In this document: piece after piece, positions 8,540-28,494 of the stretch
Position numbering within the stretch: the stretch's first letter is position 1
How the letters are laid out: each line of letters begins with the position of its first letter
NCBI RefSeq assembly: GCF_016127575.1
Contig: NZ_CP066019.1
Span: 2,400,001-2,432,000 of the forward strand
DNA: 32,000 bases
Reading direction: 5' to 3'
From: Cupriavidus necator
GTDB taxonomy: Bacteria > Pseudomonadota > Gammaproteobacteria > Burkholderiales > Burkholderiaceae
Translations under genes and position numbers: made by a program
Notes under the pieces: model-generated
Databases searched by the model: none
Told to the model about the DNA's origin: nothing
The model's input: the letters and a program-made list of their open reading frames with translations, nothing else

Positions 8540-8540
8540 T

Positions 8541-9896: not shown

Positions 9897-9911
9897 GTTC
9901 AAGTGGCACCC

Positions 9912-9962
9912 AAAAAAGCCGCCCACGCCAGTTACGGCCATTGGGGGAGCTGGCGTGGGCGC
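9912..9962 (-). terminator. Rho-independent terminator for the CHASE2 kinase gene (minus strand)
   Basis: An 11-12 bp GC stem is formed by GCCCACGCCAG (9921-9931) and CTGGCGTGGGC (9950-9960). Read on the minus strand it is followed by TTTTTT (A-run at 9912-9917 on plus). It lies between convergent genes. Confidence 0.55.
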
Positions 9963-10077
9963 GAAGACCACCGGATGCGGCTCCAGCGGCAATACGATGC
10001 TACGCAAATCCGCCTGTGGCGACTGCCAACAATTGTGTCGGCGGCCGTAGCATGGCTTGCGGCCGATGCTGTGCCGC

Positions 10078-12558
10078 TCAGGCCACCGGCAATTCGATAC
10101 GGAACTCCGCCCCCGCCCCAGCCGCACTGCGCACGCTGGCCTTGCCGCCATGCCGCTCGGCCACGGCCCGCACCAGCACCAGCCCCAGACCCGTGCCTTC
10201 CGGCGCGCCCTGCTGCCCCTCATGCAAGCGCGCGAACGGTTCGAACAATCGTGCCTGGTCGGCCTCGGCAATCCCCGGCCCATGGTCCTGCACGGCAACG
10301 ACAAAGCTGCCCGGCTCACGCGTGAGCGAGACCGTCACGGTCCCCGCTTGCGGGCTGAACTTGATCGCATTGCTGACCAGGTTGGCGATGGCGCGCGCCA
10401 GCAGTGTCGGTTCACCCTGCAGCACCGCGGGCTCGTCAGGCAGGTCGATCTGCAGCGTCACGTCGCGGGCATTGGCCAGCGCCCAGAGCTGGTCCGTCGC
10501 ATCCAGCACCAGGCCACCCAATTCCACTTCCATGAACGCCAGGGTCTTCGACTCCGCGCGCGCCACGCTGATGAAGTCGTCGGCCAGCGTCATCGTGCGG
10601 CGTGCATGGGCGGCGATGCGTGCCAGCACGCCGCTGTCCGTGGCGACGTCGCCGGCGGCTGCCCCATCGCGCCGCGCGCGGCGCTCATGCAGCTCGATCA
10701 AGGCCAGGATCGATGCCTGCGGCGAGCGCATGTCGTGCGACAGGAAGCGCAGCATCTGCTCGCGCTGGCGCTCGGCAATGCGGATCGCGGTGATGTCGAT
10801 CACGCTGACGATCAGGCCGGCCACGGCGCCGGCCTCGGCGTGCAGCGGCGCGCCATGCAGCAGGTAGCGGCGGTCGCCGCGCCCGGCCACCTCGATGCCG
10901 CCGTCGGGAACCGGGACCGGAGCGATGCGGGCGCCGGCGTGGCGGTCGTGCAGCGACTGCCAGTACGCCAGGGCCGGTGCCGGCGCGGGAAAGATTGCCT
11001 CGATCAGCGCGCGGATGGCGGCCCGCGGCGGCCCGGCCGCGCCCGGCGCATGAGCGGGCTCGCCGTCCAGCACCGCGGGCGCCAGCGCCACGCAGCGCCG
11101 GTTGGCCAGCATCACGCCGCCATCCAGGTCGCAGATCGCGGTGGCATCGGGCAGGCTTTCCAGGCCATCGGACAGGAAGCGGCGCGTGCCGCGCAGTTGC
11201 GCGCTCATGCTGTAGACGGCGCGCATGCGGCTGTCGAGCGTGGCGCCGGTATGGTGCGGCGCGGCAATCAGGCCGGGTTCGCGTTCCAGCCGCGCCAGTT
11301 CGTCGGTAAGGAAGCGCAAGGCCGCCTCCTGGCGCAACCAGCTCCACAGCGGGTAGAACAGCACGCAGCCCAGCGCCGCGGCGGCGGGTGCAAACCATAG
11401 CCGCGCCAGCGCCAGCAGCAACAGCGAGCCTCCCAGCAGGGCCGCCAGCAGCAGCCCGGTGGCCACCAGCGCGCCGCGCGGGGGCAGGCGCAGCGCGGCC
11501 AGTGCGGCCAGCAGCACCGCCAGCAGCGTGCCGCCGACCTGCCACGCGCGCGGCACCGCCACAATCGCATCGCCGTCGGTCAGCGCCTGCACGGTATTGG
11601 CCAGGATCTCCACCCCGCTCATGCCGCGGCCATCGCGCGACACCGGCGTCGGCAGCACGTCGCCCATGCCGGTGGCGAGCGCGCCGATCAGCACGGCCTT
11701 GCCGGCAAAGATGGCGGGGTTGGCGCGGCCATCCAGCACGTCGCGCGCTGACACGCGGGCAAAGGTGCCGGGCGGGCCGGCATACGGGATACGCAGGCGG
11801 CCGCTGCGCTCCCAGCCGTTGGCTTCGGTGATCCGGGCCGGCTCCTGGCGCGCGATGCCGGGCGGCTCGGCGGCGCGACCGAACGCCGCCATCACCGCGG
11901 CCAGGTGCGGCACGCCGGCGGCGGCCACCGGATGGGGCCCTTCGCTCAGATAGACCTGGCGCGCCACGCCATCGGTATCGACCACCATGTTGATATGGCC
12001 CACCGCGGTGCCCAGCCCGGCCAGCGGGTAGCGCACCAGCATGCCGGCGGGGCCGGATTCGGCCACCACCGGCAGCACCACGTTGCCGGCCCGGGCCAGG
12101 CTGCGGGCCAGCACGGCGTCGTCTTGCGGATAGCGGGTGTCGCGCTCGGACAGGATCACGTCCACGCCGATCACGCGCGGCCCGCCGGCGGCGATGCGCT
12201 CGACCAGCTGCGCCAGCACCGCGCGGCGCCACGGCCAGCGGCCGATGGCGGTGATGCTGGCGTCATCGATGCCGACGATGACGATGTCGTCGCGGGCCGG
12301 ATGGTGCTGGGCGCTGATGGCGATGTCGTAGGCGGCCAGGTCGGCGCGCTCGGCCCAGCCCTGGCGCGCGGCCAGCACCACCAGGGCCAGCACGGCAGCA
12401 AGCAGCAGGCACCATTCGATCAGCGTGCGCTGCCCGAAAGCGTGCCCGGGCGCGGCCGGCGCCGGGCCTGGCGCGTCAGTTGAGCCGGATGCGGCCACCA
12501 CCGTCCGGCCGGTCGCCCGACCCGATTGCGCCGCCCTGCGAGTCGCGCAGGAGGGCAT
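10078..12558 (-). CDS. CHASE2-domain sensor histidine kinase (CHASE2 - TM bundle - PAS-like - HisKA - HATPase)
   Basis: The CHASE2 signature is DIVIVGIDDASITAIGRWPWRRAVLAQLVERIAAGGPRVIGVDVILSERD, followed by a hydrophobic block. The H-box is FLSHDMRSPQASILALIEL, the N-box is IANLVSNAIKFSP, and the G-boxes are QDHGPGI and GTGLGLVLVRAVAERHGG. The start is ambiguous: ATG 12558, TTG 12567, or GTG 12501/12498. Each of them overlaps the 3' end of the upstream gene. Confidence 0.9.
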   Translation of the reverse strand: MPSCATRRAAQSGRATGRTVVAASGSTDAPGPAPAAPGHAFGQRTLIEWCLLLAAVLALVVLAARQGWAERADLAAYDIAISAQHHPARDDIVIVGIDDASITAIGRWPWRRAVLAQLVERIAAGGPRVIGVDVILSERDTRYPQDDAVLARSLARAGNVVLPVVAESGPAGMLVRYPLAGLGTAVGHINMVVDTDGVARQVYLSEGPHPVAAAGVPHLAAVMAAFGRAAEPPGIARQEPARITEANGWERSGRLRIPYAGPPGTFARVSARDVLDGRANPAIFAGKAVLIGALATGMGDVLPTPVSRDGRGMSGVEILANTVQALTDGDAIVAVPRAWQVGGTLLAVLLAALAALRLPPRGALVATGLLLAALLGGSLLLLALARLWFAPAAAALGCVLFYPLWSWLRQEAALRFLTDELARLEREPGLIAAPHHTGATLDSRMRAVYSMSAQLRGTRRFLSDGLESLPDATAICDLDGGVMLANRRCVALAPAVLDGEPAHAPGAAGPPRAAIRALIEAIFPAPAPALAYWQSLHDRHAGARIAPVPVPDGGIEVAGRGDRRYLLHGAPLHAEAGAVAGLIVSVIDITAIRIAERQREQMLRFLSHDMRSPQASILALIELHERRARRDGAAAGDVATDSGVLARIAAHARRTMTLADDFISVARAESKTLAFMEVELGGLVLDATDQLWALANARDVTLQIDLPDEPAVLQGEPTLLARAIANLVSNAIKFSPQAGTVTVSLTREPGSFVVAVQDHGPGIAEADQARLFEPFARLHEGQQGAPEGTGLGLVLVRAVAERHGGKASVRSAAGAGAEFRIELPVA

Positions 12559-14194
12559 TGACTTCAATGCGCTGCGGCGCGGAGAACGCCGCCGGGTCAG
12601 GTGTCACCCCCGGCGCCGCACGTGCCACGCGGATGAAATAGACGCCGGGCGCGGGGCGCGGCAGGTCAATGGCATTGGTGGTGGTGTGCTCGTCGGCCAG
12701 CAGTGTGGCAAAGCCGGCATCGGCCGACACCTGGACCCGGTAGCCCGCGCCGGCGCCGCTGCCCTCGGGCCAGCCGATATGCAGCGCGCCGCCGTCGTCC
12801 TGCAGGGTCGGCACGGGCGGCTTGGGTTCGACGCTGAACGGGACCGCGTCCGACCACGGGCCCGGCCGGCCCGCCGCATCGACGCTGCGCACGCGCCACC
12901 ACCAGCGGCCCGGCACCAGCGCTTGCGTGGCGGCGGGCTCGGAGGCCGCCTGCACCACGGCATCGCGCGTAAAGGCCGAATCGGCGGCCAGCGCCAGTTC
13001 GTAGCGCGCCGCGCTCGGCACGGTGGCCCATTCGAAGGCGACGGCTTCGGCATAGCGCACCGCATCGGCGGCAGGCTGCTGCGTGAACGGCGCCGGCGGG
13101 TTCAGCCGCACCGACACCGGTGCCTGGGCGTCATGGCCGGTCAGCTGGTGCTTGTCGATGGCACTGACGCTCAGGTACAGCGTGCCCTCGGGCAGGCCGT
13201 CGACGCGCGCGGTCGTGGCAGTGGCGCCACTGGCGGTGCCGGTCCAGACCAGTTCGCTCAGCGCCGCATCGCGCGCCACCAGCACGCGGTAGGCGGTGGC
13301 GCCCGGCACCGGCTGCCAGACGGCTTCGAAGGACGGGCCCAGCACGGTATCGGCCGGGGGCAGCAGGGCCGGCGCCGGCAGCAGCGCCACCGGCTGCGAC
13401 AGCTTGCCGCCGGCCGACACGCCGATGCCATAGCCGGCACCGACCGAAGCCGCCGCGGTCATGGCACGCTCTGCTGCCGGCCTGGCGCGGGCACCCCGCG
13501 CCGCACTGACGCCGACGCGCCCTTCCAGCACCTCGCTGCGGCTTCCTGCCGTGTCGGCCGAGACCCGGTAGCGGGTGCCGCGCACGCCGGTCACCATCAT
13601 CGGCGTATGCAGCTCGAAGCGCCCGACGCCGCCGCCCTGCGGTGCCACGCGCGTATCGGCGGCACCCTTCTCGATGCGGATCACGGTGTCGGTCAGGCCG
13701 CTGCGCGCGAACATGCGCAGCCGGCTGACCGAGAGCGTGGTGGCCGGCGGCACCGTGACGCGGCTGCGGTCCGGCAACTCCAGCGTGACCGAGCCGCCCG
13801 CGGGGGTCTCGATGCGCGTGGTTTCGTCCAGCGTCATGCCGGCCTGCACCGGCCGGCCATTGGCGCGGACCGCACCGGCCACATGGACCACACGCGCCGA
13901 CGCGGCCTGCTCGGGAATCTGGCTGAGCGGGATGCGCAGGCGCGAGCCGGGCACCAGCCGGTACGGATCGGCCACGCCGTTCAGGCGCTGCAGCGTGCGC
14001 CACCCCTGCTCGGACGCCATGTAGCGCGAGGCCAGGCCGATCAGCGTATCGCCCGGCTCCACCAGGTAGATAAAATCGGCGCCTTCCGCGCCCGCGGGCC
14101 CGGCGTGCGCCGGAACCGCCATGCCGGCCAGCAGGGCCAGCGCGGCACCACCGATCACCTTACGCATCCGCCCCGGCCTCATCCGCCTCCACAT
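12476..14194 (-). CDS. Secreted LysM + FecR-domain protein with three C-terminal FN3/Ig-like repeats
   Basis: The signal peptide is ...RKVIGGAALALLAGMAVPAHA. The LysM domain is YLVEPGDTLIGLASRY...LNGVADPYRLVPGSRLRIP. The FecR-like beta region is AGAVRANGRPVQAGMTLDETTRIETPAGGSVTLELPDRSRVTV...GVRGTRYRV. Three repeats of about 90 aa follow (W..VPGA..YRV..A.D..F). Possible ATG starts are 14194, 14182 and 14167, all overlapping the RR gene end. Confidence 0.85.
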   Translation of the reverse strand: MWRRMRPGRMRKVIGGAALALLAGMAVPAHAGPAGAEGADFIYLVEPGDTLIGLASRYMASEQGWRTLQRLNGVADPYRLVPGSRLRIPLSQIPEQAASARVVHVAGAVRANGRPVQAGMTLDETTRIETPAGGSVTLELPDRSRVTVPPATTLSVSRLRMFARSGLTDTVIRIEKGAADTRVAPQGGGVGRFELHTPMMVTGVRGTRYRVSADTAGSRSEVLEGRVGVSAARGARARPAAERAMTAAASVGAGYGIGVSAGGKLSQPVALLPAPALLPPADTVLGPSFEAVWQPVPGATAYRVLVARDAALSELVWTGTASGATATTARVDGLPEGTLYLSVSAIDKHQLTGHDAQAPVSVRLNPPAPFTQQPAADAVRYAEAVAFEWATVPSAARYELALAADSAFTRDAVVQAASEPAATQALVPGRWWWRVRSVDAAGRPGPWSDAVPFSVEPKPPVPTLQDDGGALHIGWPEGSGAGAGYRVQVSADAGFATLLADEHTTTNAIDLPRPAPGVYFIRVARAAPGVTPDPAAFSAPQRIEVNALLRDSQGGAIGSGDRPDGGGRIRLN

Positions 14195-14888
14195 CTGCCG
14201 CGGAAGCCTCTTCAAAGCGATAGCCGTGCGAGTACACGGAGGTCAGCCGCACGCCGTTCTCGGGGCGCAGCGCCAGCTTGAGGCGCAGCCGCGAGATATG
14301 CGTATCCAGCGTGCGCGAGCCCGCGCCCATGGCGCGGCCCCAGACGGCCTGCTCCATCACCTCGCGCGCCAGCAGGCGCCCGGTATTGCGGAACAGGAAC
14401 AGGGCCAGCTCATATTCTCGCGGGGACAGCAGCGCCGGCTCGCCGCCGACGGTGATGGTGCGCGCGTGGGTATCGACGATGTAGTTGCCGCGCCGGATCA
14501 GCTCCACTTCCTGCGCCGCCTCGGGGTAGGCGCGGCGCAGCAGCGAACGCACGCGGGCGATCAGCTCGCCGGCGCGGATGGGCTTGAGCATGTAGTCGTC
14601 GGCGCCCACGGTGAGGCCGTCGACGATGTCGGATTCGGCGGTGCGGCTGGTGACGAACAGGATCGGCGGCATATTGCCGGACTTCTGCCGCACCCAGCTG
14701 ACCAGCTCATAGCCGCTGGTGCCCGGCAACTGCCAGTCGACCAGCAACAGGTCATAGGCGCGCTCGCGCAGCGCGCGCAGAAAGTCCGCACCGTTGGCGA
14801 AGGACTCGCACTCGAAGCCGGCTTCGCTCAATATCTGCCGGATCAGTTCGGCCTGATCCGGATCATCCTCCACGGAGGCAATTCGCAT
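14160..14888 (-). CDS. OmpR/PhoB-family response regulator
   Basis: I chose ATG 14888 (RBS AGAGG upstream). The receiver is MRIASVEDDPDQAELI...DLLLVDWQLPGTSG...DDYMLKPIRAGELIARVRSLLRR. The winged helix is LSPREYELALFLFRN...VYSHGYRF. The ORF-track N-terminal extension to 15293 lacks any receiver sequence. Confidence 0.9.
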   Translation of the reverse strand: MRIASVEDDPDQAELIRQILSEAGFECESFANGADFLRALRERAYDLLLVDWQLPGTSGYELVSWVRQKSGNMPPILFVTSRTAESDIVDGLTVGADDYMLKPIRAGELIARVRSLLRRAYPEAAQEVELIRRGNYIVDTHARTITVGGEPALLSPREYELALFLFRNTGRLLAREVMEQAVWGRAMGAGSRTLDTHISRLRLKLALRPENGVRLTSVYSHGYRFEEASAADVEADEAGADA

Positions 14889-15110
14889 ACCTCTACATCC
14901 TTCTGCCAGCTTCCGACTGCAACTGCGGTCTCTGCCACGGCATGTCGACGGCTCGGCCGGCAAGTCATTCCTCATATTCACCCCCAGGGGGGCGCGGCCG
15001 TCGATCTGATCCGACGGGCCAGGCCGAAGCCCGCCGGCTGCCGCCATGTTACCCAATCGCAGGCCCTTCCGTCGAGATGCCCCGACGAGGGGTGGTGGCG
15101 GCAACTGCGC

Positions 15111-15137
15111 CGATCCCTCCGCGATCGTCTTTCGATC
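15111..15137. promoter_or_regulatory. Three phased CGATC direct repeats (11-bp period) in the pelG-RR intergenic region; candidate OmpR-type binding array
   Basis: CGATC occurs at 15111-15115, 15122-15126 and 15133-15137, exactly 11 bp apart. The array lies about 225-250 nt upstream of the RR start codon on the minus strand. Confidence 0.3.
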
Positions 15138-15198
15138 TGCATCATCCTTGCCGCCATCGCGCCGCCCGGGGAGCCGGCCGGCGCGGCCCCGGCAGGGC

Positions 15199-16569
15199 CT
15201 ATTGCAGCATGTAGGTCTCGTACTCCAGCCGGTCCAGCTTGCGGTCCAGCAGGTACAGCGCCAGCGCCACCACCACCAGCAGCGACACCGCAAAGCCGTA
15301 GCCGTACCAGGCCGGCCCCAGGTGCAGCGTCAGCAGCGTCAGCGCGAAGTTCAGCACCACGAAGGTCGCGGTCAGCAGCAGCACCTCGCGGCGGCGGTCC
15401 AGGTAGAAGTAGATGTTGAGCACCCCCAGCAGCACCACCTGCAGGCTGGCGCCGATCACGTCCACGTACAGCAGCGGCAGGTACAGCTCGGAAATGCCCA
15501 GCAGCCGCAGCACCCACACGCCCACCGCGAACAGCAGCAGCGCGGCGATGGCCTGCACCTTGACGATCTCGTACAAACCCAGCCGGATGGTCTGGACCAT
15601 GGTGTTGCGCATGTCCTCGATATGCTCGAGCGAGCTGCCGCCGCGCACCGCGTTGTAGAACGCGTCGTAGTACTCGACGAAATCGGTCTCGATGCGCACC
15701 AGGAACACCGCCATGCCCGGGATGATTGCCAGGTAGGCCAGGAACACCGGGATGTCGTAGATGATCGACGCATGCAGCGGCCCGATCACCTGCTGCCCGG
15801 TGGAGGGCGCGTACCAGAACATGAACTTGTCGATCCAGATACCCAGGTTGTAGAGCAGGCCGATCGCGACCAGGCTGGGGTAGGCATGGCGGCGCTGGAA
15901 CACCTCGAACGACATGAACTGGCGGCTGGTGTAGTTGCGGTAGATCAGCGTCACCATGCCGGTCAGCAGGCACAGCTGGCCGGCGGCGAAACCGCCCAGC
16001 AGCCCTTCCAGCCCGTGGCCGCGCAGCACCAGCGCGGCGCCGACCGAGATCGCGTAGCCCAGCAGGAAGGTCCACACGATGGCCTTGTACTGCTTCATGC
16101 TCGACAGGAAGATCGCAGCAATCCAGATATTGCTCAGCACCACGAAGCCCGCCACCATCAGCAGCCGGTACAGCACCGACTGCTCGCCGAAGCTGAATAC
16201 CGCGCACGCCACGCCGATGCCGCCCGACAGCACCGTCGCCAGCAGCGCCACCGCGTGGTAGTTGCTCAGGACCAGGTGGTCGCGCTTCTCGAACAACCGG
16301 TCCGAGGTGAAGCGCGTGAACGCCAGCTGCATCGGCCCGGTCAGGATCAGGCTGCCGGCGATCAGGTAGGTCACCGACACCTGGAACTGCGTGATCAGCG
16401 AGCCCGGCACCACGAAGGGCAGGCTCAGCATGCCGATCAGCAGGATGCCGACGATGGACAGGATCCATGGCCCGGAGCTGATGATGCCGGCATACGCGTA
16501 GGCGCTCAGCATGCCCGACAGGTTGTCCCGCCGCAGCATCTTGCGCAGCTCGAATCCAATGCCAGCCAT
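15199..16569 (-). CDS. pelG: Pel exopolysaccharide transporter PelG (multi-TM, PST/MATE-like)
   Basis: The N-terminus MAGIGFELRKMLRRDNLSGMLSAYAYAGIISSGPW is characteristic of PelG. It has about 12 hydrophobic segments and is 456 aa, the same length I recall for P. aeruginosa PelG. It is the last gene of a pelA-G order. Confidence 0.9.
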   Translation of the reverse strand: MAGIGFELRKMLRRDNLSGMLSAYAYAGIISSGPWILSIVGILLIGMLSLPFVVPGSLITQFQVSVTYLIAGSLILTGPMQLAFTRFTSDRLFEKRDHLVLSNYHAVALLATVLSGGIGVACAVFSFGEQSVLYRLLMVAGFVVLSNIWIAAIFLSSMKQYKAIVWTFLLGYAISVGAALVLRGHGLEGLLGGFAAGQLCLLTGMVTLIYRNYTSRQFMSFEVFQRRHAYPSLVAIGLLYNLGIWIDKFMFWYAPSTGQQVIGPLHASIIYDIPVFLAYLAIIPGMAVFLVRIETDFVEYYDAFYNAVRGGSSLEHIEDMRNTMVQTIRLGLYEIVKVQAIAALLLFAVGVWVLRLLGISELYLPLLYVDVIGASLQVVLLGVLNIYFYLDRRREVLLLTATFVVLNFALTLLTLHLGPAWYGYGFAVSLLVVVALALYLLDRKLDRLEYETYMLQ

Positions 16570-16571
16570 GC

Positions 16572-18170
16572 TCAGGCCCCTCCGTGGACCGGGCAGCGCG
16601 CGGGGTTGCCGCCGCCCTGCCGCTCAGGTTCGCCATGCCCGGCGCCGTCTGCCTGCGCCATCAGCCGTTGATACAGTTCGCGGTAGCTGCCCACCATGCG
16701 GTCCTGGGTGTAGTAGCGCTCCACGCGCGCCACGCCGGCGGCCTGGGCCGCCTGCCAGCGCGCCGGGTCCCGCAGCAGCCCGAGCGCCGCCGCGGCCAGG
16801 GCCGCGGGGTCGGCAATGCGCACCACCTCGCCGGCCGAGCCCAGCGCGGCGTCGTCGCCGGGCAGGCCGAACAGCAGCTCGCGGCACGAGCCCACGTCGG
16901 TGGTCACGCACGGCACGCCGGCGGCAAAGCCTTCCAGCACCACCAGCGGCAGCGCCTCGCTGATCGAGCTCAGCACCAGCACGCCCACCTGCGGCAGCAG
17001 CGCGTCGATGCGCTGGAAGCCCAGGAACTTGACCTTCTGGCCCAAGCCCAGGCTCTCGGCCAGGCTGCGGCATTCACGCGCGTAGTCGGGATCCTCGTCC
17101 TCGGGGCCGGCGATCCAGCCTTCGGCGTCGGGGTACTCGCGCACCACCGTCAGCATGGCGCGGATAAAGGTCTTGACGTCCTTGATCGGCACCACCCGGC
17201 CAATCAGGCACAGCACCGGCGGCACGCCCGGCTTGCGGCGGGCGCGCAGCGGCGCCAGGCGCGGCAGGTCGATGCCATTGGGGATGCTGCGCGTGCGCAC
17301 CTCAGGCGCGCCGTCCTGCACCTGGCGGCGGCGATTGCCCTCATACAGCGCGACGATGTCGTCGCCGGCGTCGTAGCAGACCCGGCCGATGGTCTCGAAG
17401 AAGCGCACCCACAGTTCGCGGAAGTAGCTGATCTGGGAGATGTCGCGCTCGAACACATTGCGGTTGTCGCGGATCCACTGGCTCTGGAACAGGTCGATCT
17501 TGCGTTCCTTGGTGTAGATGCCGTGCTCCGACACCAGCAGCGGGCGCTGGTTGCGGTGGCGCAGCAGCGCCCCGAGAAAGCCCGCATAGCCGGTGGAAAC
17601 CGTGTGGTAGACGCGCGCCGGGATCAGGTTGTCGGCAATGCGCACCAGCTGCCACAGCGGCTTGTGCATGATGCGCACGGTCCAGAAATAGTCCGTGAAC
17701 GACGGGTCCGTGCAGAAGCGCCGGTATTGCTCGGTGATGGTCTGCCAGGCGCGGCGGCTGTACAGGAAGGCGTCCTCGCCCAGCGCCCCACCCTCGCGCA
17801 GCGCCGGCATCAGCTCGCGCATCATGGCGCCGGCCTCGGCCTCACGGCCCGGGTCGCGCAGCAGCTCGTGCAGGCGGTCCGAGGCGTCGAACGCCTTGGC
17901 ATCGCCGGTGCTGCCCTGGACCAGCGGCGGCGGCGGGAAGTCGTACAGGTAGTGCGTTTCCAGGTGCACCACGTTGGGCGGCAGCTGGTAGGCCATGTCG
18001 CCATAGTCCTCGCGCCGGCTGCCGATAAAGACGATGCCGAAGCGCAGGTCCGGGAACGCGCGGATCATCTGGTTGACCCAGCTCGACACCCCTCCGCTCA
18101 CATACGGGAAGGTGCCTTCGAGCAGCAACATGACGTCGGCCGACGTCGCTTTTACCAGGATCTTGCTCAT
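16572..18170 (-). CDS. pelF: GT4-family glycosyltransferase PelF
   Basis: The N-terminus is DVMLLLEGTFPYVSGGVSSWVNQMIRAFPD. An E-x7-E motif (EALPLVVLE) is followed by GFAAGVPCVTTDVGSCREL. There is an ATGA overlap with the pelE stop, and its stop lies 2 nt before the pelG ATG. Confidence 0.92.
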   Translation of the reverse strand: MSKILVKATSADVMLLLEGTFPYVSGGVSSWVNQMIRAFPDLRFGIVFIGSRREDYGDMAYQLPPNVVHLETHYLYDFPPPPLVQGSTGDAKAFDASDRLHELLRDPGREAEAGAMMRELMPALREGGALGEDAFLYSRRAWQTITEQYRRFCTDPSFTDYFWTVRIMHKPLWQLVRIADNLIPARVYHTVSTGYAGFLGALLRHRNQRPLLVSEHGIYTKERKIDLFQSQWIRDNRNVFERDISQISYFRELWVRFFETIGRVCYDAGDDIVALYEGNRRRQVQDGAPEVRTRSIPNGIDLPRLAPLRARRKPGVPPVLCLIGRVVPIKDVKTFIRAMLTVVREYPDAEGWIAGPEDEDPDYARECRSLAESLGLGQKVKFLGFQRIDALLPQVGVLVLSSISEALPLVVLEGFAAGVPCVTTDVGSCRELLFGLPGDDAALGSAGEVVRIADPAALAAAALGLLRDPARWQAAQAAGVARVERYYTQDRMVGSYRELYQRLMAQADGAGHGEPERQGGGNPARCPVHGGA

Positions 18171-19153
18171 GATTGCCAGTACCGCAGCAGGGGCCGCACC
18201 AGCGGGAGCGGCGAGGGGCTGTCAAACGATGCCATCAGCTGGCGCACCGCGGCATAGTCGCGTTCCAGGTAGGCGGCCTCGGCCAGGTGCGGCAGCACGC
18301 GTTCGCGCGCGAAGCCGAGGGATTCGGCGCGCTGCAGCCATTCACGCGCCTCGCGCGGGGCATTGCGCGCCAGCGCCAGGCGTCCGCGCATGTACCACAG
18401 CGAGGCATTGCTGTCGTCGTACTGCAGCGCCGCGCTGGCGTAGCGCTCGACCTGGCTGGCGGTGTAGCGGTAGACGTCGCCCTGCACCAGGTTCTGGTAG
18501 ATCAGTTCCCAGTACAGGTCTGCCAGCCGCTTGCTGATCTCGGCGCGCTCGCTGGCGCTGTTGGCGCTCTCCAGCCGCGGCAGCTCGGCCAGGATCTGCT
18601 GGGTCAGCTGCTTCTCGGCGCCGTCCAGCATGCCGTAGGCCAGCAGCCGCACGTCGTCGACGCTGTCGGCCAGCAGTTCGCGCAGCACCGGGCTGGCGGT
18701 GCGCGCCGGCATCGACTGCATCGCCACCAGCGCGGTCATGCGCTCGGGCAGGGGCGCGCGCGCATTGCCCAGCTGCGCACGCAGGCGCGCGCCGCCGCCG
18801 TGGGTGACGCGCGACATCAGGTGCGTGACGAACTCGGGCAAGCCCACGGTGCCGATGCCGCTGGTGTCCACGCGCCGCGGGAACAGCTTCGAGAACAGGT
18901 AGCTGCCCAGGCACACCAGCGCGCCGCCCAGCGGCACGAAGAAGCAGAACAGCGCGAGAAAGCCATAGCTCCATCCGAACGGCACGCGAAAGCGCCGCGG
19001 CAGCAGGCGCCACAGCAGCAGCGCCGTCAGCGCGGCGGCCACCGCCTGCATGCCGAAGAAGGCCAGCAGCAGCGCGGTGCTGTTGCCGGCGCGCGCCAGC
19101 AGCGCCAGCGCGGCGATCTGGGCGACGAGCCCGCTGGCGCCGAGCTTAAACAT
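18167..19153 (-). CDS. pelE: PelE (inner-membrane, TPR-like Pel assembly protein)
   Basis: I chose ATG 19153, giving 328 aa. It has two N-terminal TM helices (GLVAQIAALALL..., ALLLAFFGMQAVAAALTALLLW) and then helical TPR-like repeats. Its position between pelD and pelF fits. It overlaps the pelD stop by 8 nt. Confidence 0.75.
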   Translation of the reverse strand: MFKLGASGLVAQIAALALLARAGNSTALLLAFFGMQAVAAALTALLLWRLLPRRFRVPFGWSYGFLALFCFFVPLGGALVCLGSYLFSKLFPRRVDTSGIGTVGLPEFVTHLMSRVTHGGGARLRAQLGNARAPLPERMTALVAMQSMPARTASPVLRELLADSVDDVRLLAYGMLDGAEKQLTQQILAELPRLESANSASERAEISKRLADLYWELIYQNLVQGDVYRYTASQVERYASAALQYDDSNASLWYMRGRLALARNAPREAREWLQRAESLGFARERVLPHLAEAAYLERDYAAVRQLMASFDSPSPLPLVRPLLRYWQS

Positions 19154-20585
19154 GGGGCGCTTCCCCGGCCGGCAGCGTGGCCGGCGCGATCGCGCCATCC
19201 ACCTGGGCCCGGCGCAGCAGCTTGACCAGCGCGTCTTCCGAGCCGGCGCCGGGCACCGCCAGCGTATAGACGCCGATGCCCGCACTGGTGAAGTCGGTGC
19301 CGAACTGCGCGCGCAGCATGTCTTCGATGCGCACCAGGTAGGCCGCCACCGCCTGCGCATCGGACAGCGGCATCAGCGTCAGCATCGCGCGGTGATGGGC
19401 GTTGACCACCGGCCACGCCACATCCAGCGCGCGCCGGCTGCGCACCACCTGCTCGAACAGCGCATCGCGCTCCGGATCCGCGTCGAACACCAGCGCCACA
19501 ACCGAGCTTTCGATGCCGGTCTCGCGCCGCAGCCGCGACAGCCGCGCATAGTCCAGCGCAAACGGGTATGGGCAGGCCGGCAGCGCCGCCTGGATGGTGC
19601 GGGTGGCGCCGGCGTGCTCCACGCCGTCGGCGTAGTAGCCCAGCAGCACCATCAGCATCTGCAGGTTCTCGTAGGTCAGCGACAGGAACGGCATGCGCTC
19701 GACCACCAGCAGGCCGATCAGGTGGTCGGAGCCGGCCAGCACCGGCGCCACCGCCACGTAGCGCGTCTGCGCGCCATGCTGCAGGCCGTCGGCGCTCAGG
19801 TGCGCCAGCTGGCGCGTGTCCAGGCAGTGGCGCACCAACGGGTCGGTGGTGTCGAGCGTGAATTCCGGGCCGATGCTGGCGACCGGGACGCCATCCACGT
19901 GCTCGCCATCGCAGGCATGGAGCGCGGCTGCCTCAAGCTGGCAGGCCTGCGCCACCACCTGCAGCATCGGCTGCGCACCGGCCAGCACCTGGCCGGTGCG
20001 CGCGGCCTCGTCCAGCGCCACGCTGCGCAGCTGCGACAGCGTGTCGCGCAGCGTGGTGGGCCGCGCCAGCAGGTCGTTTTCCAGCCGCTCATGCGAGATG
20101 CGCAGCAGGTAGTGGTTCTTGGTCAGCGCCGCCAGGCGTTCGTCCAGGTAGCGGTTCACGGCGCGGGCGCGCGCCAGGCGCGTGCCCCAGATATCGCCGA
20201 ACTGTCCGGCCACCAGCACCAGCAGCAGCCCGCCGAGGAAGAACAGGCGCGGGAAGGGCCCTGCCATCACGCCGGTCTGCTGGTAGAAGTACCAGCCGCC
20301 CAGCAGCATCAGCACGCTGCCCACGCCGATCAGCGTGCCATAGCGCAGCGCCAGGATCACCGGCAGCAGCCAGGCCCACGGAAAGCCCATGCCGAGCAGC
20401 AGCGGATTCTGCGGCAGCACCAGCCACGCCAGCCCCATTGCGGCCAGCATGGCCACCACCAGTTCCACCACGGCCGCGCGCCCGCTGACCGCCGGCGCCA
20501 GCAGGCGCGCATAGCGCCCACCCAGGCCGATGCCCTGTCCTTGCCGCGCGCGATATGTCTTGTCAGCCGTATTGGCCACGCTCAT
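19146..20585 (-). CDS. pelD: PelD, c-di-GMP receptor (4 TM + GAF + degenerate GGDEF)
   Basis: It has four N-terminal TM segments, a central GAF-like region and a C-terminal degenerate GGDEF. The I-site-type RALD (19422-19433) is followed 5 residues later by VNAHH, where GGDEF would sit. A GTG at 20579 is an alternative start. Confidence 0.85.
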   Translation of the reverse strand: MSVANTADKTYRARQGQGIGLGGRYARLLAPAVSGRAAVVELVVAMLAAMGLAWLVLPQNPLLLGMGFPWAWLLPVILALRYGTLIGVGSVLMLLGGWYFYQQTGVMAGPFPRLFFLGGLLLVLVAGQFGDIWGTRLARARAVNRYLDERLAALTKNHYLLRISHERLENDLLARPTTLRDTLSQLRSVALDEAARTGQVLAGAQPMLQVVAQACQLEAAALHACDGEHVDGVPVASIGPEFTLDTTDPLVRHCLDTRQLAHLSADGLQHGAQTRYVAVAPVLAGSDHLIGLLVVERMPFLSLTYENLQMLMVLLGYYADGVEHAGATRTIQAALPACPYPFALDYARLSRLRRETGIESSVVALVFDADPERDALFEQVVRSRRALDVAWPVVNAHHRAMLTLMPLSDAQAVAAYLVRIEDMLRAQFGTDFTSAGIGVYTLAVPGAGSEDALVKLLRRAQVDGAIAPATLPAGEAPHV

Positions 20586-20651
20586 CCCCTTGCTTCAACC
20601 ATTGCATCGCCGCATCGGTGTGCAGCCTCTTCCTGGTGGCTTGCCGCCGCC

Positions 20652-21236
20652 TCAGCCTTGCATCAGCGGCGCCAGCAGGCGACGCAGCAGCTTCTGCGCG
20701 GTGCCCGACAGCGAGGCGCGGCTCCAGCCGCTGTCGCTGCCGGTGGCCGACCACACCACTTCACCGCTGTTCACGTCCAGCAGCTGCAGCGAGATGCCGA
20801 CCGCAGGCTCGCCGTCCACGCCCACCTTGTAGCGCCATTCCTGCACCGCGCCGGTCAGCGCGTAACGGGCCTTCTCGGCACGCGCCCATTCCAGCGCCTT
20901 GCCCACGGCTTCGCGCTCGGCCGGCTCGAACAGCGTTTCCGGGTTCAGGCTGGCCGGATAACGCTTCAGGCTGGCCACGCCGCCGGTCTTCAGCAGGCTC
21001 TCGGCAATCGCCTCGGCGCGCAGGCCGGCCTGCGGCGTCTCGGTGTAGTTCACGATCGGCAGCACCGCGATGATCTCGCCGCGGGCCAGCGCCGGCGCGC
21101 GGCCGACATCCGTCACCGCACAGCCTGCCAGCCACAGTGCCGCGCCCAGCGCGCCGCACCATGCCGCCAGCCGCCTGGCCACTGTCTTGCCCGTCATTGC
21201 CGTGGTTTGCTTGTTCATCTTCATCCCCTTTTCCAT
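20652..21236 (-). CDS. pelC: PelC outer-membrane lipoprotein
   Basis: It has the lipobox LWLAGC after a basic n-region and is small (~175-194 aa). It sits between pelB and pelD. The start is ambiguous: ATG at 21236, 21224, 21218 (best SD spacing, AAGGGG) or 21197. Confidence 0.75.
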   Translation of the reverse strand: MEKGMKMNKQTTAMTGKTVARRLAAWCGALGAALWLAGCAVTDVGRAPALARGEIIAVLPIVNYTETPQAGLRAEAIAESLLKTGGVASLKRYPASLNPETLFEPAEREAVGKALEWARAEKARYALTGAVQEWRYKVGVDGEPAVGISLQLLDVNSGEVVWSATGSDSGWSRASLSGTAQKLLRRLLAPLMQG

Positions 21237-21277
21237 GTCCTGTTGTTACCCGATCCCTGCCATCCGCTGCCGCCGGC

Positions 21278-24200
21278 TCAGTACAGCCAGCGATAGCGCA
21301 TTCCCAGTTCCGTCAGCGGCCTGCCACCGTTGCGCGCCGCGGTCTCATGCGAGATATACAGCGCCAGGTGGTCGTTGCCGAATACCGATCCGGCCACCCC
21401 GCCCTGCACGCGGAAGTTCTGCCGTGCGCGCGTGTCGCGCAGCAGCCCCACTTCACCGAACGGCCGCCACTTGCGTGTGTATTCGTCCAGCAGCTCAGTG
21501 CCGAAGCCGAACAGCACGCCGGCCTGCGTGAAGCCCTGCGGCATGTAGAACGCCGGCGTGGCTTCGTCGCCGACCGGCACCAGCGACGCCATGCGCGGCG
21601 TCAGGCCGCCGCCGTTGGCACTGTAGTTGGCATGCGTGCCGACCACGCGCACGGTGTAGTCCGGATACGAGGTGCGGATCCTGTAGCCGGCCTCGACGTC
21701 ATAGACCATGCCATGCCCGAGCGCGCTGCGGTCCTGCCCGCGGAAGCTGCTGTACTCGATGCGCGCGCCGACGAACTCGCGCAGGCTGAAGCGCCAGGTT
21801 GCGCCCAGCCCCACGACGTCCTTGGCCCCGCCCACGCGCAGCGGCGCCGATTCGTCGGCCGGCTGGTTCAGCCCGGCCAGCGTGCTGAACTGCAGCCGGC
21901 CCTGCTGGTTCCACTCGCCGAAGAAGCGCGCGGTCGCCATTGTGTCCAGCCCCTCGCGGTAGCCTGCCGTGGCACGCCAGCGCTTGCTGTTGTCGCGATA
22001 ACCCAGCGACAGGTCGGCGCGCCGGTCGGACGACGGCACGTTCACCAGCTGCTGCGGATCGGTGCTGCGCTGGTCGCGCCAGGTGCCGCGCAGGTTCAGG
22101 TCATACCCGTCCCACAGGCGCACGCCACCCGCGAGGCTGCCTTCGGTATATTCCAGCGGCTTCTGGTGCATGAAGCTCACGCGCGGCTCGATCGCCTGGG
22201 CGTTGTAGAGCAGCGTCTCCTGCAAGGAGTCCTGCAGCGTGTCATCGGAACGGGCCCGCTCCTGGGTTTCGAAGGCCAGCGTCTGCGCGGCGCTGATGCG
22301 GTTCAGTTGCTGGTTGGCCTCGATCTGGTTGGCCACCGGCACGCGGCCGGCCTGGCGCTCCAGGATACGGTCAAGGCTGTTCATGTCCTGCCGGTCCAGC
22401 GCGATCGCCACCTCGGCATAGGCCGGTCGCTGCAGCCGGTTGACGTACTGGCGGGCCAGCCAGCTTCGCGCCAGTTCGTTGGATTCCGCGGACATCGCCC
22501 ATGCCAGCGCGGCATCGCGCCCGGCAGCGGACAGCGCGGCATCGCGGCGGGCCGCATTGCGCGCGACCTCCGCGGACGCGGGCGCGGTTGCCGCCTCATG
22601 AAGCGGCGGCAGCCCGGCCACCTCGCCCAGCTGCGACGGCGCGCCCGCCATCGGCGGCACCAGTTCGCGCGCCGCCGTGGAAGCGCGGTCCGCGCGCAGC
22701 ATCTGGATCACCAGCGCGCGCGAGACATCGCCCGAGGCAAAGATCTGCCCCAGCGCCACGGTCTGGCGGCGCAGGTCCGCGCGCGAAGGCGCGCCGGACT
22801 CGTTCTCGTACTCTTCGTCGCCGTCGGTGTTGTCGGGCCGCAGCCGGGCATAGCGCACCCCGCCCTGGGACCAGCCATGGTGCAGGTCGATCCAGGCCTG
22901 GCGGCGCACGCGCCAGGCCATGTCGGTCTGGCCGATGGCTTCATAAGCATCGGCCATCAGGCTGAGCCAGAGCGGATCGGCGCTCTTGCCGTCGTTGAGC
23001 TTGCGCAGGTAGTGCATGGCCGCGCGCCCGTCCTGGAAACGCATATGGCCCGCGGCGAAGGCGCCCCACAGGTCGGGGTTGTCTTCCGCGTCGTCCTTGA
23101 CGCGGCGCATCACCGCGCGCACTTCGGTATCGCTGCCCTGGTCGACCAGCGTCCACAGCAGCGCCGCCAGCGTTTCGCTGTCGGCATCGCGCAGGCCCGC
23201 GGCGCGGCGCAGGTCGGCCAGGGCGTGGTCGCGCTGGCCGGTCACGCGGTAGTACTCCGCGCGCCGCATCAGGAAGCGGCTCGACTGCGCTGCCGCCTGG
23301 CGCTGCTCGGGCGTCATGTCCTGCAACAGGCGCCCGATACGCCGGTAGGCGTGGGCACGCGTGTAGTAGTACAGCGCCAGTTCCAGCGATTCCGGCTTGC
23401 CGCCGCGGCGCCAGTCGGCCTCGGCGATGCGCCCGGCGTCGATCGGGGTCTTGTCGTAGTAGGCGATCAGGTTGGAGAAATCCGCCTCCTGCGTGTCGCG
23501 GACCTCGTCCAGGCAGTCGTTGCGCGCCGGGCCCGCCGGCCTCTCCATGCAGTGCTCGTCCTGCGTCTGCGCCGCCGCCAGCATCAGCTGGCGATAGCCG
23601 TCCTTGAGCAGGTCGTCGCGCTGGTTCAGCCGCGCCAGCTCGGTAAAGGTGCGCCAGTAGAGGATGTCATCCTTCCCGGCCGTGGCACGCGCCGGCAGCA
23701 TGGCGTCCAGCGCCTGCGCCAGCTTGCCGCGCACATAGAGCAGGTTGGCGAGCTTCAGCGCATAGGCGGGGCGCGGGCCGAAGCGCTGCTGCATCTGCGT
23801 ATAGATCTGGAACGCGCGCTCGTCCTTGCCGGCGCGCTCGGCCAGCGCGGCGTGGCGTTCCATGATGTCGCGAGCCCTGGGGCCGTGGCTCAGGCCTTCG
23901 AGGAAGCGCATGGCCTCTTCCGGCTCGCCCAGGCGTTCGTAGGCAGCCACCACCTCGTCCACGGTCTTCAGGTCCGAGCCGCCCGCGCGGTGGCGCAGCG
24001 CGGCCAGGTAGGCGCGATCGTCGGACAGGCCCGGGGCGAGCCGCATCACTGCATCCCACGCGCGCTCGTCGTTGGTGGCGCGGGCATAGTCGAGCCAGCT
24101 CTTCAGGGCCACGGCCGGCTGGCGGTTCCATTCGGCCACCTGCGCCAGCCGTTCGCGCCAGATCGCCTCGCCCGGCAGCCGGCGCACCGCGGTCTCGGCC

Positions 24201-25372
24201 ACGCGCTGCGCCTGGTCGAGCTTGCCGGCTGACAGGAACACGCGATAGGCGAGTTCGTAGTCGTCGGCGTTGAACGGCTTGTCGGCTGGCTCCGCCGGCG
24301 CCTGCGCGGGCGCAGCAGCTTGCGCCGCAATCTTGCGCGTACCCAGCTGGCCGGAGGCGGCCAGCGCTTCACGCAAGGCCAGGCCGCGCGGCCCGTCGAG
24401 GAAGACCAGGCCGCGCTCGGCCCACGGCTGGCTGGCGGCGATACGCCGCGCCTCGGCCTGGCGTGCGGCCAGCGCCGCCGGGCCGGCATCGCGCGTGCGC
24501 GCCGAAACCTTCAGCAGCCGCTCGACATAGCGGCTGGCCTGCTCCGGCTTGTTGGCCGCCAGCGCCAGCTTCGTCAGGTAGCGCAGCACCTCCGGATCGT
24601 CCAGCAGCTTGCCGCCGTGGCGCTCGGCCTGCGCCAGCGCTTCGTCCAGCAGGTTGCCTGACTGCAGCGTCTGCACCGCCTTCAGGAACAGCGCGCGCCG
24701 CTCGGCCAGCGTGGTGGCGGCCGCCTGCTGCGCGAACAAGGCGTTGGCGGCGTTGCGATAGTCGCCGCCCGCGATCGCCATGTCGGCCAGCTGGCGGTTC
24801 CAGAAGGCCGCGTTGTTGCGGTCCTGGCTGGCCAGCGCCGCATAGAACTTGCGCATCGCGTCCTGGGCGCCGGCCTGGCGCGACTGCGTGGCCAGCGTTT
24901 GCAGGTCGGCCAGCCCCCAGCTGCGCCCGGCAGCCTGGTCCAGCAGGCTGCGCAGCTGCACCAGGTTCTGTTCGCGCTCAGGCGTATCCGGCAGCGCGGC
25001 CCAGGCGCGCTGCTGCGCGATCTCGATGCGCGTGCGCAGGATCTGGCCCGACAGGTCGGTGCCCTGCACCGCCTGCATGCGCGCCAGCATGGCCTGCGCC
25101 TCTTCCAGCCGGCCGGTGCGCGCGTATTGTTCGGCCAGCACGCCCATGAAACCGGGGTCGTCGGGCGTGACCTTCCACCAGGCTTCCAGGTAGGCCATGG
25201 TCAGCCCGTCGATGGTGCGGCCCTGGCCCAGCAGGCGCTCGCGCAGAGTCTCGCGCGGGAACATCAGCGCCAGGCCGATCCCCACCATCGCAGTGAAAGT
25301 CAGCACCAGCGCCGGCGGCAGCAGCCGCTCGCGCTCAACCGGCGCAGCGGACTTCGACTTGTTGCCTGGCAT
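21278..25372 (-). CDS. pelB: PelB (N-terminal TM anchor, long TPR scaffold, C-terminal outer-membrane beta-barrel porin)
   Basis: There is a TM segment after MPGNKSKS... (LVLTFTAMVGIGLALMF). Helical Ala/Leu/Arg-rich TPR repeats span about 900 aa. The C-terminal ~400 aa show alternating beta-strand patterns ending ...ELGMRYRWLY (aromatic OMP terminus). The ORF-track start at 25447 is also possible. Confidence 0.85.
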   Translation of the reverse strand: MPGNKSKSAAPVERERLLPPALVLTFTAMVGIGLALMFPRETLRERLLGQGRTIDGLTMAYLEAWWKVTPDDPGFMGVLAEQYARTGRLEEAQAMLARMQAVQGTDLSGQILRTRIEIAQQRAWAALPDTPEREQNLVQLRSLLDQAAGRSWGLADLQTLATQSRQAGAQDAMRKFYAALASQDRNNAAFWNRQLADMAIAGGDYRNAANALFAQQAAATTLAERRALFLKAVQTLQSGNLLDEALAQAERHGGKLLDDPEVLRYLTKLALAANKPEQASRYVERLLKVSARTRDAGPAALAARQAEARRIAASQPWAERGLVFLDGPRGLALREALAASGQLGTRKIAAQAAAPAQAPAEPADKPFNADDYELAYRVFLSAGKLDQAQRVAETAVRRLPGEAIWRERLAQVAEWNRQPAVALKSWLDYARATNDERAWDAVMRLAPGLSDDRAYLAALRHRAGGSDLKTVDEVVAAYERLGEPEEAMRFLEGLSHGPRARDIMERHAALAERAGKDERAFQIYTQMQQRFGPRPAYALKLANLLYVRGKLAQALDAMLPARATAGKDDILYWRTFTELARLNQRDDLLKDGYRQLMLAAAQTQDEHCMERPAGPARNDCLDEVRDTQEADFSNLIAYYDKTPIDAGRIAEADWRRGGKPESLELALYYYTRAHAYRRIGRLLQDMTPEQRQAAAQSSRFLMRRAEYYRVTGQRDHALADLRRAAGLRDADSETLAALLWTLVDQGSDTEVRAVMRRVKDDAEDNPDLWGAFAAGHMRFQDGRAAMHYLRKLNDGKSADPLWLSLMADAYEAIGQTDMAWRVRRQAWIDLHHGWSQGGVRYARLRPDNTDGDEEYENESGAPSRADLRRQTVALGQIFASGDVSRALVIQMLRADRASTAARELVPPMAGAPSQLGEVAGLPPLHEAATAPASAEVARNAARRDAALSAAGRDAALAWAMSAESNELARSWLARQYVNRLQRPAYAEVAIALDRQDMNSLDRILERQAGRVPVANQIEANQQLNRISAAQTLAFETQERARSDDTLQDSLQETLLYNAQAIEPRVSFMHQKPLEYTEGSLAGGVRLWDGYDLNLRGTWRDQRSTDPQQLVNVPSSDRRADLSLGYRDNSKRWRATAGYREGLDTMATARFFGEWNQQGRLQFSTLAGLNQPADESAPLRVGGAKDVVGLGATWRFSLREFVGARIEYSSFRGQDRSALGHGMVYDVEAGYRIRTSYPDYTVRVVGTHANYSANGGGLTPRMASLVPVGDEATPAFYMPQGFTQAGVLFGFGTELLDEYTRKWRPFGEVGLLRDTRARQNFRVQGGVAGSVFGNDHLALYISHETAARNGGRPLTELGMRYRWLY

Positions 25373-28214: not shown

Positions 28215-28480
28215 CCCTACCCACCCCGATCGGAACGGCATGCGGCCGCCCCGGTTCCCTTGTGCTTCCTCCAGCTGCTTCACAGGCTTACTTCCTCTTG
28301 TCTGCGCACGCCGGCAAGTGCCTCACGCACGACATTCCCTGAGGCGGTCGCTGCCGCCTTGTGTCCGACTGTGGATCTCAGAATCGGAAAAATCTGATGG
28401 TATCCGGAAACGAATGCTAGGACAGACGCATGGATCACATTGTCAACAATTGTCCCAACACTGAGACATTGAGCCGGCTC

Positions 28481-28494
28481 GCGCGTTAACGCGC
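28481..28494. promoter_or_regulatory. Perfect 14-bp palindrome upstream of pelA
   Basis: GCGCGTTAACGCGC is read directly from the sequence. It lies about 270 nt upstream of the pelA ATG. Its function is unknown. Confidence 0.3.

Follow-up and report, generated by a model that had tools for sequence, protein, structure and literature searches.

We analyzed a 32,000-nt stretch of the Cupriavidus necator genome (NCBI RefSeq assembly GCF_016127575.1, contig NZ_CP066019.1, forward-strand positions 2,400,001 to 2,432,000), hereafter the window, with positions numbered from its first nucleotide. Our subject is a set of three minus-strand genes that follow pelG, the last gene of the exopolysaccharide (EPS) operon pelABCDEFG, on chromosome 2 of C. 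necator H16. In the direction of transcription, they encode an OmpR-type response regulator (RR), a LysM-FecR protein, and a CHASE2 kinase; we refer to the LysM-FecR protein as the accessory protein and to the three genes together as the triad. Comparison with relatives suggests that the Cupriavidus pel genes sit behind the sensor system's own promoter, which is marked by a direct-repeat box. The genes at the locus are as follows:

15199..28283, minus strand: pelABCDEFG operon, given as maximal open reading frames (ORFs); Pfam and synteny with the called genes of C. metallidurans
25335-28283, minus strand: pelA (Pfam GH114; start GTG)
21278-25447, minus strand: pelB (Pfam TPR and PelB barrel)
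20652-21236, minus strand: pelC (maximal ORF)
19146-20585, minus strand: pelD (Pfam PelD_GGDEF)
18167-19360, minus strand: pelE (maximal ORF)
16572-18170, minus strand: pelF (Pfam DUF3492/GT1)
15199-16569, minus strand: pelG (Pfam PelG, E = 6e-169)
14160..14888, minus strand: OmpR/PhoB-type RR, 242 aa (Pfam Response_reg 8e-27, Trans_reg_C 3e-16; NCBIfam)
12476..14167, minus strand: accessory protein, periplasmic or secreted, 563 aa (signal peptide, LysM, FecR, three FN3-like domains)
10078..~12558, minus strand: sensor histidine kinase, start uncertain (12498-12567) (Pfam, hydropathy, junction sequence)

The triad and the BiofilmReg family

The ORF coordinates confirm the layout given in the first-pass annotation of this DNA, in which the three minus-strand genes follow pelG after a gap of 310 bp, measured to the RR ATG at 14888. 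The overlapping junctions described there also hold. The RR stop TAA (14162-14160) overlaps the accessory-gene ATG at 14167 by 8 nt (sequence ATGCGTAA), and the accessory-gene stop (12478-12476) lies 23-92 nt downstream of each plausible kinase start (GTG 12498/12501, ATG 12558, TTG 12567); the next start codon beyond these would truncate the first transmembrane segment (TM1). In C. necator EM36 (L013:9902-14077), the accessory gene and the kinase form a single 1391-aa ORF, which is probably an assembly frameshift.

CAJ96979, CAJ96978 (563 aa, C. necator H16), and CAJ96980 match the RR, the accessory protein, and PelG exactly, in that order. A Pfam profile search recovered the RR, LysM, FecR, CHASE2, PAS, and HATPase domains proposed in the first pass, with HisKA at 1e-4, under the Pfam cutoff, and an H-box (SHDMRSP) present. 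The kinase is ordered as TM1 (46-72), a periplasmic CHASE2 domain (4.9e-57), a hydrophobic block at ~341-415 that corresponds to about three transmembrane segments, PAS_4 (6e-7), HisKA, and HATPase_c (7e-28). The best NCBIfam models for the RR are CreB, PhoB, and MtrA, all under their equivalog cutoffs. The accessory protein has a signal peptide with cleavage between AHA and G, no other hydrophobic segment by hydropathy, and Pfam matches to LysM (5.5e-8) and FecR (8.4e-17). The three FN3-like repeats also proposed for it are borne out by structure rather than by Pfam, which gave no FN3 and merely a weak DUF4962 match: all three are clear in an AlphaFold2 model (47 homologs, pLDDT 87.5), and in the PDB, Foldseek matched this model best to fibronectin fragments of three and four FN3 domains (TM 0.5-0.6). 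The LysM region resembles TsaP and cell-wall endopeptidase-related proteins in the PDB. Cupriavidus accessory proteins end in a polar Gly-rich tail (LLRD..GG..); in an alignment, the C-terminus of distant homologs (P0069, P0083, P0092, P0100, P0101) is hydrophobic, a possible membrane anchor.

The triad had been thought undescribed, which proved wrong. Voronina et al. (2016; PMC5192318) named an operon of RR, LysM-FecR "peptidoglycan-binding protein," and CHASE2-PAS kinase in Burkholderia contaminans "BiofilmReg," and a plasposon mutant in its RR gene completely lost biofilm. Their table of orthologs covers Burkholderia (BCAL1443-1446), Achromobacter, Bordetella, and Ralstonia pickettii, plus PA4035/PA4036; the Burkholderia subtype has a fourth gene (DUF4136), and the Ralstonia and Bordetella subtype consists of three genes (PMC5192318). 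The BiofilmReg accessory gene begins within the end of the RR gene, and the leader before the RR is long, with a predicted 173 nt in B. contaminans and, from RNA-seq, >150 nt for BCAL1443 (PMC5192318).

The C. necator triad shares with BiofilmReg the gene order RR, LysM-FecR, and CHASE2-transmembrane-PAS-HisKA-HATPase kinase, the accessory start inside the RR end, and a long RR leader, inferred at ~150 nt here. It differs in having no DUF4136 gene, in the three FN3 domains of its accessory protein, and in following pelABCDEFG, with the box promoter heading pel instead of RR; the biofilm phenotype is reported for Burkholderia only. At the position of the missing DUF4136 lipoprotein gene, the gene beyond the kinase is a convergent, glutamate-synthase-like one (8451-9896). 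Accessory proteins in the Bordetella, Achromobacter, and Ralstonia loci are 41-48% identical, and synteny is kept. Our homology searches for relatives named no Burkholderia or Pseudomonas member among the matches, and Burkholderia members were compared by their published description. Family membership is established on these grounds: the triad is the C. necator H16 ortholog of the known but little-studied Burkholderiales BiofilmReg operon, of the three-gene subtype found in Ralstonia and Bordetella.

A pel-adjacent copy was in fact among the tabulated orthologs. Entry 19 is "R. pickettii" DTP0602, chromosome 2, whose accessory protein has an extra C-terminal part (PMC5192318). The DTP0602 RR and the window RR share one 90% identity cluster, and DTP0602, which has the same accessory C-terminal extension as the window, is the Cupriavidus-type long form. 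Because the accession of the DTP0602 RR is adjacent to that of the DTP0602 PelG, the pel-adjacent triad had already been tabulated with pel unnoticed; neither pel nor the box is mentioned in the Voronina paper (PMC5192318).

CHASE2 sensors also occur with FecR-domain proteins in systems of different output. FecR-domain genes have been noted beside CHASE2 adenylate cyclases in Campylobacterota (CHASE2-cyclase/FecR/TPR clusters), and in Sinorhizobium meliloti, a FecR-domain protein belongs to the cyclic AMP (cAMP)/Clr regulon of the CHASE2 cyclases CyaD1/CyaD2/CyaK, which sense their signal via the outer-membrane protein NsrA. These systems resemble the triad in pairing a CHASE2 sensor with separate envelope proteins and in having clustered or co-regulated FecR-domain genes, but their output is cAMP instead of a histidine kinase and OmpR regulator, and they have neither a LysM/FN3 accessory protein nor a Pel link. 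FecA-FecR-FecI shares the periplasmic FecR domain (PF04773) and provides an earlier example of an event at the outer envelope being passed on to a signaling protein of the inner membrane. In contrast to FecR, the accessory protein has a cleavable signal peptide, with no cytoplasmic anti-sigma domain in the Pfam search and no transmembrane anchor by hydropathy, and no extracytoplasmic function sigma factor or TonB-dependent transducer adjoins its gene in loci with called genes. We considered and rejected a FecR-type anti-sigma factor (FecIRA), as only the cleavable signal peptide precedes LysM and the neighbors are pelG/RR and the kinase.

Genomic neighborhoods of the triad

Scanning one genome per species with an accessory-protein alignment (8 sequences) yielded 80 loci. 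RR, accessory, and CHASE2 kinase genes occur in the same order in 78 of them; the others (L016 and L066) end at contig ends. Loci with pel directly upstream and co-directional were distributed as follows:

Cupriavidus: 31/43
Ralstonia: 0/21
Bordetella/Achromobacter: 0/15
Pandoraea-labelled metagenome-assembled genome (MAG): 0/1

The survey establishes how the pel linkage is distributed. The 31 pel-adjacent loci, two of them from records mislabelled as Ralstonia, span deep branches of Cupriavidus: basilensis/pauculus/metallidurans, with PelG ~88% identical, and the gilardii group (~60%). Pel and triad protein identities co-vary across the Cupriavidus loci, as expected under long vertical co-inheritance. 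In Ralstonia, the triad adjoins uvrC/pgsA; in Bordetella and Achromobacter, it adjoins the rpsL-fusA-tuf and rpoBC operons. Distant homologs (Paracidovorax, Sphingobium, metagenome contigs) include the triad with no pel beside it. The triad is an autonomous, widespread module, and the pel link is a feature of Cupriavidus. The pel association that the first-pass annotation read from a single locus, and proposed to check by such a survey, has therefore survived in part: in most lineages the triad lies at unrelated loci, whereas within Cupriavidus the link holds and is backed by a shared promoter box. We rejected the idea that the triad is a pel-cluster accessory (like pelX), given adjacency in 31/43 Cupriavidus loci and in 0/37 from Ralstonia, Bordetella, Achromobacter, and the Pandoraea-labelled MAG.

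All 21 Ralstonia triad loci have no pel genes near; Ralstonia PelA homologs exist, and pel loci have been reported in several Ralstonia strains. The sole Ralstonia pel locus examined (L093) extends to pelB only, and the region past its pelG lies outside it. At two unrelated metagenome/MAG loci, the mechanosensitive channel gene mscL stands directly beside the triad (L086:8037-8459 and L087:8834-9226). The Pandoraea-labelled MAG (L035:5924-14847) encodes an RR and CHASE2 kinase without an accessory protein, then a second RR and LysM-FecR protein, then an MHYT-GGDEF-EAL protein; the module is rearranged or duplicated there.

What lies upstream of the RR varies within Cupriavidus. In close pel-less relatives, homology to the window runs from the hopanoid/cold-shock flank to ~28940 (weakly to ~28797) and resumes at 14888-15092, just before the RR; we refer to the interval between as the slot. 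In L006, the slot is only 767 bp. Four loci (L037, L009, L010, and L011) have a membrane GT2 gene and a gene for a 318-aa secreted protein in the slot, co-directional with the RR. In this arrangement (L037:6682-9092; inverted in L066), which carries no box, the GT2 is 485 aa, and the 318-aa protein ends in WIVRF, is outer-membrane-barrel-like, and has no Pfam match; in L037, it shares no significant similarity with the YaiO barrel of L014.

In C. pinatubonensis and C. numazuensis (L014:426-8982 and L015), a box-headed, co-directional cluster lies directly before the RR. It encodes a UDP-GlcNAc 2-epimerase (wecB), a GT2, an unknown protein of 354 aa, a polysaccharide deacetylase-like protein of 614 aa, a YaiO barrel, and an unknown protein of 279 aa, and it looks like an undescribed synthase-type amino-sugar polysaccharide locus. 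A divergent GGDEF gene occupies the slot in C. respiraculi, C. gilardii J11, Cupriavidus sp. AU9028, and Paracidovorax. Since the gilardii group and C. basilensis carry an orthologous GGDEF gene upstream of their pel genes, pel is an indel between GGDEF and RR. The gilardii-group pel (L031, L032, L034, L047, L062, and L064; e.g., L032:2301-9000) is reduced to a 292-aa TPR protein, representing the PelB N-terminus only (pelB'), followed by pelD-E-F-G; pelA, full-length pelB, and pelC are absent within 10 kb upstream, where the GGDEF gene lies instead. Counting all of these types, matrix-related genes are found at this junction in 40 of the 43 Cupriavidus loci.

On the far side of pel, window positions 28284-29640 form an unusually long non-coding stretch (~1.3 kb) of lower GC (0.62) between pelA and divergent hopanoid (squalene/phytoene synthase-like) genes. 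A small cold-shock-protein gene is expected near 29150-29350 by synteny with L090 and L091, and the window from ~28797 outward is conserved in pel-less relatives.

A direct-repeat box and the putative promoters of the locus

TTTGACAATTGTTGACATT came to light when the GGDEF-RR and gilardii spacers were aligned. The resulting pattern is TTGACAA-TTG-TTGACAT, then 19 nt, then TAnnAT. Together with a second promoter-like element, the window contains:

28439..28457, minus strand: direct-repeat box TGGGACAATTGTTGACAAT, candidate operator of the triad RR; single match in the 32-kb window, 155 nt before the pelA GTG
28414..28419, minus strand: -10-like hexamer TAGCAT, separated from the preceding box by 19 nt; standard spacing offers no good -35
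15046..15075, minus strand: internal promoter-like element TCGACG-N18-TAACAT, ~150 nt before the RR start; unique in the window, 0 matches in 100 shuffles

Scans for the box 19-mer with <=4 mismatches gave 38 matches, compared with 1 in a reversed-sequence null (1.8 Mb), and 37 of the 38 are on the triad strand. Where nothing intervenes, the box lies 120-300 nt upstream of the RR, as in 17 Ralstonia loci (TTCACAATTGTTTGCAAT), Bordetella (TTGACATTGCTTGACAT), Achromobacter, Paracidovorax, and three pel-less Cupriavidus loci (L048, L051, and L059). It is found upstream of pelA, in the same orientation, in the window, C. alkaliphilus (taiwanensis clade), and C. basilensis, and in weaker form in a C. 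metallidurans-group genome. In six gilardii-group loci, it precedes pelB'-DEFG, with the flank GCCACG as in the pel-less C. gilardii J11, and in C. pinatubonensis and C. numazuensis, it precedes wecB. The pelG-RR spacers of pel-bearing loci have no box, except for a degenerate copy in the gilardii group.

As an independent, unbiased check, we also scanned all metagenome contigs for the box followed by N19 and TASSAT, which gave 10 matches. All six in high-GC DNA are upstream of pelA, pelB'-DEFG-triad, or wecB-GT2; the other four are in 32-42% GC DNA that has none of the tested pel, EPS, or triad genes. The existence, position, orientation, and specificity of the box are established by these scans.

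In each instance examined from Cupriavidus, Paracidovorax, and Ralstonia, exactly 19 nt separate the box from a TAnnAT hexamer that follows it. With this fixed spacing, the second heptamer is 21 nt away from the -10, a distance too great for a -35. All genera share a directly repeated 7-mer (two TTGACAW heptamers) whose period is 10 bp, and direct repeats of this period are the geometry used by OmpR/PhoB-type dimers. In Bordetella, palindromic symmetry is lost and the 7-mer direct repeat is perfect (TTGACAT-TGC-TTGACAT). The recognition-helix region of the RR (SRTLDTHxSRxRxKL) is conserved across the genera carrying the box. In Bordetella genomosp. 7 (L081:8283-8996) and L082, a second OmpR-type RR gene is divergent from the triad RR and shares its box-containing spacer.

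Several other candidate elements were set aside. Similarity between the regions upstream of pelA and the GT2 gene, considered as a shared motif, is residual flank homology reaching to ~28797 in the window, and 14-mers shared among the pelA, RR, and L037 GT2 upstream regions are only GC-rich ones, near shuffle level. A box-like sequence after the kinase in L013 (14108-14126) has no gene downstream and is treated as chance or decay.

Within the pelG-RR spacer, the flanks of the internal element diverge, but its parts GGTAACAT and CTCGACG are both retained, each in 18 spacers of the necator, taiwanensis, and pauculus clades; C. laharis has the variant TTCGACG/GTTAACAT. The position of this element predicts a leader of ~150 nt, like the long leader of the Burkholderia ortholog. 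Rfam and tRNA scans of the whole window gave no matches, so the long leaders include no known riboswitch. When positions 9700-15400 were scanned for generic promoters and terminators, the pelG-RR gap yielded neither a sigma-70 site nor a terminator, and folding of the window hairpin 3' of pelG is no stronger than that of shuffled sequence (z = -0.86).

Proposed regulation of pel and its alternatives

Taken as a whole, the evidence points to a transcriptional wiring of pel to the promoter of the sensor system. We judge it reasonably probable, from comparative genomics, that the triad is a BiofilmReg-type system whose phosphorylated RR activates the box promoter, which heads pel in C. necator. 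In such a system, the LysM-FecR-(FN3)3 protein, held on peptidoglycan via LysM, would assist the kinase's periplasmic CHASE2 domain as an accessory or co-sensor, and the kinase would phosphorylate the OmpR-type regulator. The phosphorylated RR would then bind the direct-repeat box ~19 nt before the -10 of a -35-less promoter and activate it; we infer both this binding and the accessory-CHASE2 contact as predictions. In most lineages, the box promoter would drive the triad itself, an autoregulation. In Cupriavidus, an EPS cluster (pelABCDEFG, pelB'-DEFG, or wecB-GT2-deacetylase-YaiO) is interposed between the box promoter and the RR gene, so that matrix genes would become the first output of the system. 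Transcription from the box promoter would read into pelABCDEFG and possibly onward into the triad, and the second, box-less promoter in the pelG-RR spacer would provide basal sensor expression.

A similar architecture may be seen in pmrCAB (eptA-basRS) of Salmonella and E. coli. There, a single co-directional unit holds the target gene followed by the two-component genes, with a regulator-activated promoter before the target and a separate constitutive promoter just before the regulator gene. However, the pmrCAB sensor is unrelated, with no CHASE2 and no accessory FecR protein, and the Cupriavidus target is a 13-kb seven-gene polysaccharide operon whose wiring is deduced from comparative genomics only.

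Several observations weigh against RR control of pel through the box. The triad is kept with no nearby EPS cluster in Ralstonia, Bordetella, Achromobacter, and Sphingobium, and it is kept after pel loss in L006, so pel is not its sole or original target. No box is detectable in L006 or in the necator-group loci with GT2 and secreted-protein genes. Upstream of Ralstonia mannitolilytica pelA, there is a 4-mismatch box (L093:2749-2767) on the opposite strand with no -10 at the usual spacing, and one Burkholderia pelA upstream region has no box. Motifs shared by the pelA and RR upstream regions of the window include none that is convincing. The box itself holds two copies of the sigma-70 -35 consensus and could thus belong to a promoter or be bound by some other factor. 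Lastly, hairpins lie 3' of pelG in several lineages, clearly in L026 (an intrinsic terminator) and L023, and may restrict how much transcription passes on into the triad.

The adjacency to pel could instead be a matter of history, with the triad an autonomous envelope-stress or cell-wall sensor, the slot an insertion hot spot for EPS cassettes on the Cupriavidus secondary chromosome, and pel regulated elsewhere. Such a history would suit the conserved housekeeping loci of the triad in other genera, the pel segment as a clean indel between conserved flanks, the IS elements and "insertion hotspot" reported upstream of pel in CH34, and a triad with its own promoter-like element behind the hairpins 3' of pelG. 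We nonetheless think it unlikely, because the same box and -10 promoter heads pel, pelB'-DEFG, or wecB-GT2 in every examinable Cupriavidus lineage and heads RR wherever nothing intervenes, and because the pattern in high-GC metagenome DNA is found only upstream of these clusters. Moreover, three unrelated matrix-type neighbors (pel, GT2 clusters, and GGDEF) recur at this one junction. The box might also be the site of a different transcription factor or mark a special promoter class, which would make the triad a co-expressed passenger and not the pel regulator. Its core, ACAATTGT, is palindromic and would suit a dimeric non-RR regulator too, and in Bordetella a second, divergent OmpR-type RR gene stands beside it. 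We give this explanation a similarly small chance: the triad is the only gene set constantly downstream of the box across genera, its RR recognition helix is conserved, and the Bordetella box, with its palindrome lost and direct repeat perfect, fits a head-to-tail OmpR/PhoB-type dimer.

A further alternative concerns the LysM-FecR-FN3 protein, which could be a peptidoglycan-anchored structural or scaffold protein, e.g., one that tethers an export apparatus like TsaP, and merely be co-expressed with the kinase. The resemblance of its LysM region to TsaP and the endopeptidase-related proteins would fit such a role. Yet in both Beta- and Alphaproteobacteria, its gene overlaps the RR gene on one side and the kinase gene on the other, whether or not EPS or secretion genes are close by, and FecR-domain genes recur beside CHASE2 proteins of other outputs; we find a purely structural role quite improbable, the least likely of these alternatives. 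As for what a co-sensor would detect, one scheme beyond RR control of the box promoter is a product- or secretion-coupled feedback, in which the accessory protein would detect, in the periplasm, a partially de-N-acetylated amino-sugar polymer (Pel or the product of the wecB-GT2-deacetylase cluster) or the activity of the barrel that exports it across the outer membrane, and relay this to CHASE2, and the RR would tune the same operon promoter. This scheme is doubtful at present, and Pel or glycan sensing by the LysM-FecR protein is pure inference; both box-headed clusters make amino-sugar polymers with a deacetylase, which fits the glycan idea.

Pel regulation is well understood in Pseudomonas only. 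In P. aeruginosa, it involves FleQ/c-di-GMP at the pel promoter, PelD, and Gac/Rsm; the target, pelABCDEFG, is the same in Cupriavidus, and the window also encodes a PelD (GAF and degenerate GGDEF). Cupriavidus differs in having a two-component system beside pel and a direct-repeat box at the pelA promoter. The searchable literature contains no report of such a dedicated two-component system beside pel with a direct-repeat box at the pelA promoter, and nothing on the triad in Cupriavidus, Rmet_4162-4164, H16_B21xx, or the box sequence. Relative to the literature that could be searched, the box is new, as is the placement of a Cupriavidus polysaccharide operon between the box promoter and the regulator gene.

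CHASE2, an extracytoplasmic sensor domain of wide occurrence, has no defined ligand in kinases, and its frequent FecR-domain neighbor has no assigned role. The box and the Cupriavidus arrangement turn an earlier guess about this locus into a concrete, testable wiring diagram, and the different polysaccharide clusters slotted between a sensor promoter and its RR gene present an example of regulon rewiring by insertion. If the RR controls the box promoter, the pelA promoter or pellicle of the genetically tractable C. necator H16 would provide a read-out for screening CHASE2-kinase signals and for testing the co-sensor, and the "no biofilm" phenotype in Burkholderia would be explained via a conserved operator, for which those genomes can be scanned. 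The feedback scheme, if true, would give the first defined physiological input for CHASE2 in a histidine kinase and a dedicated sensory regulator for Pel.

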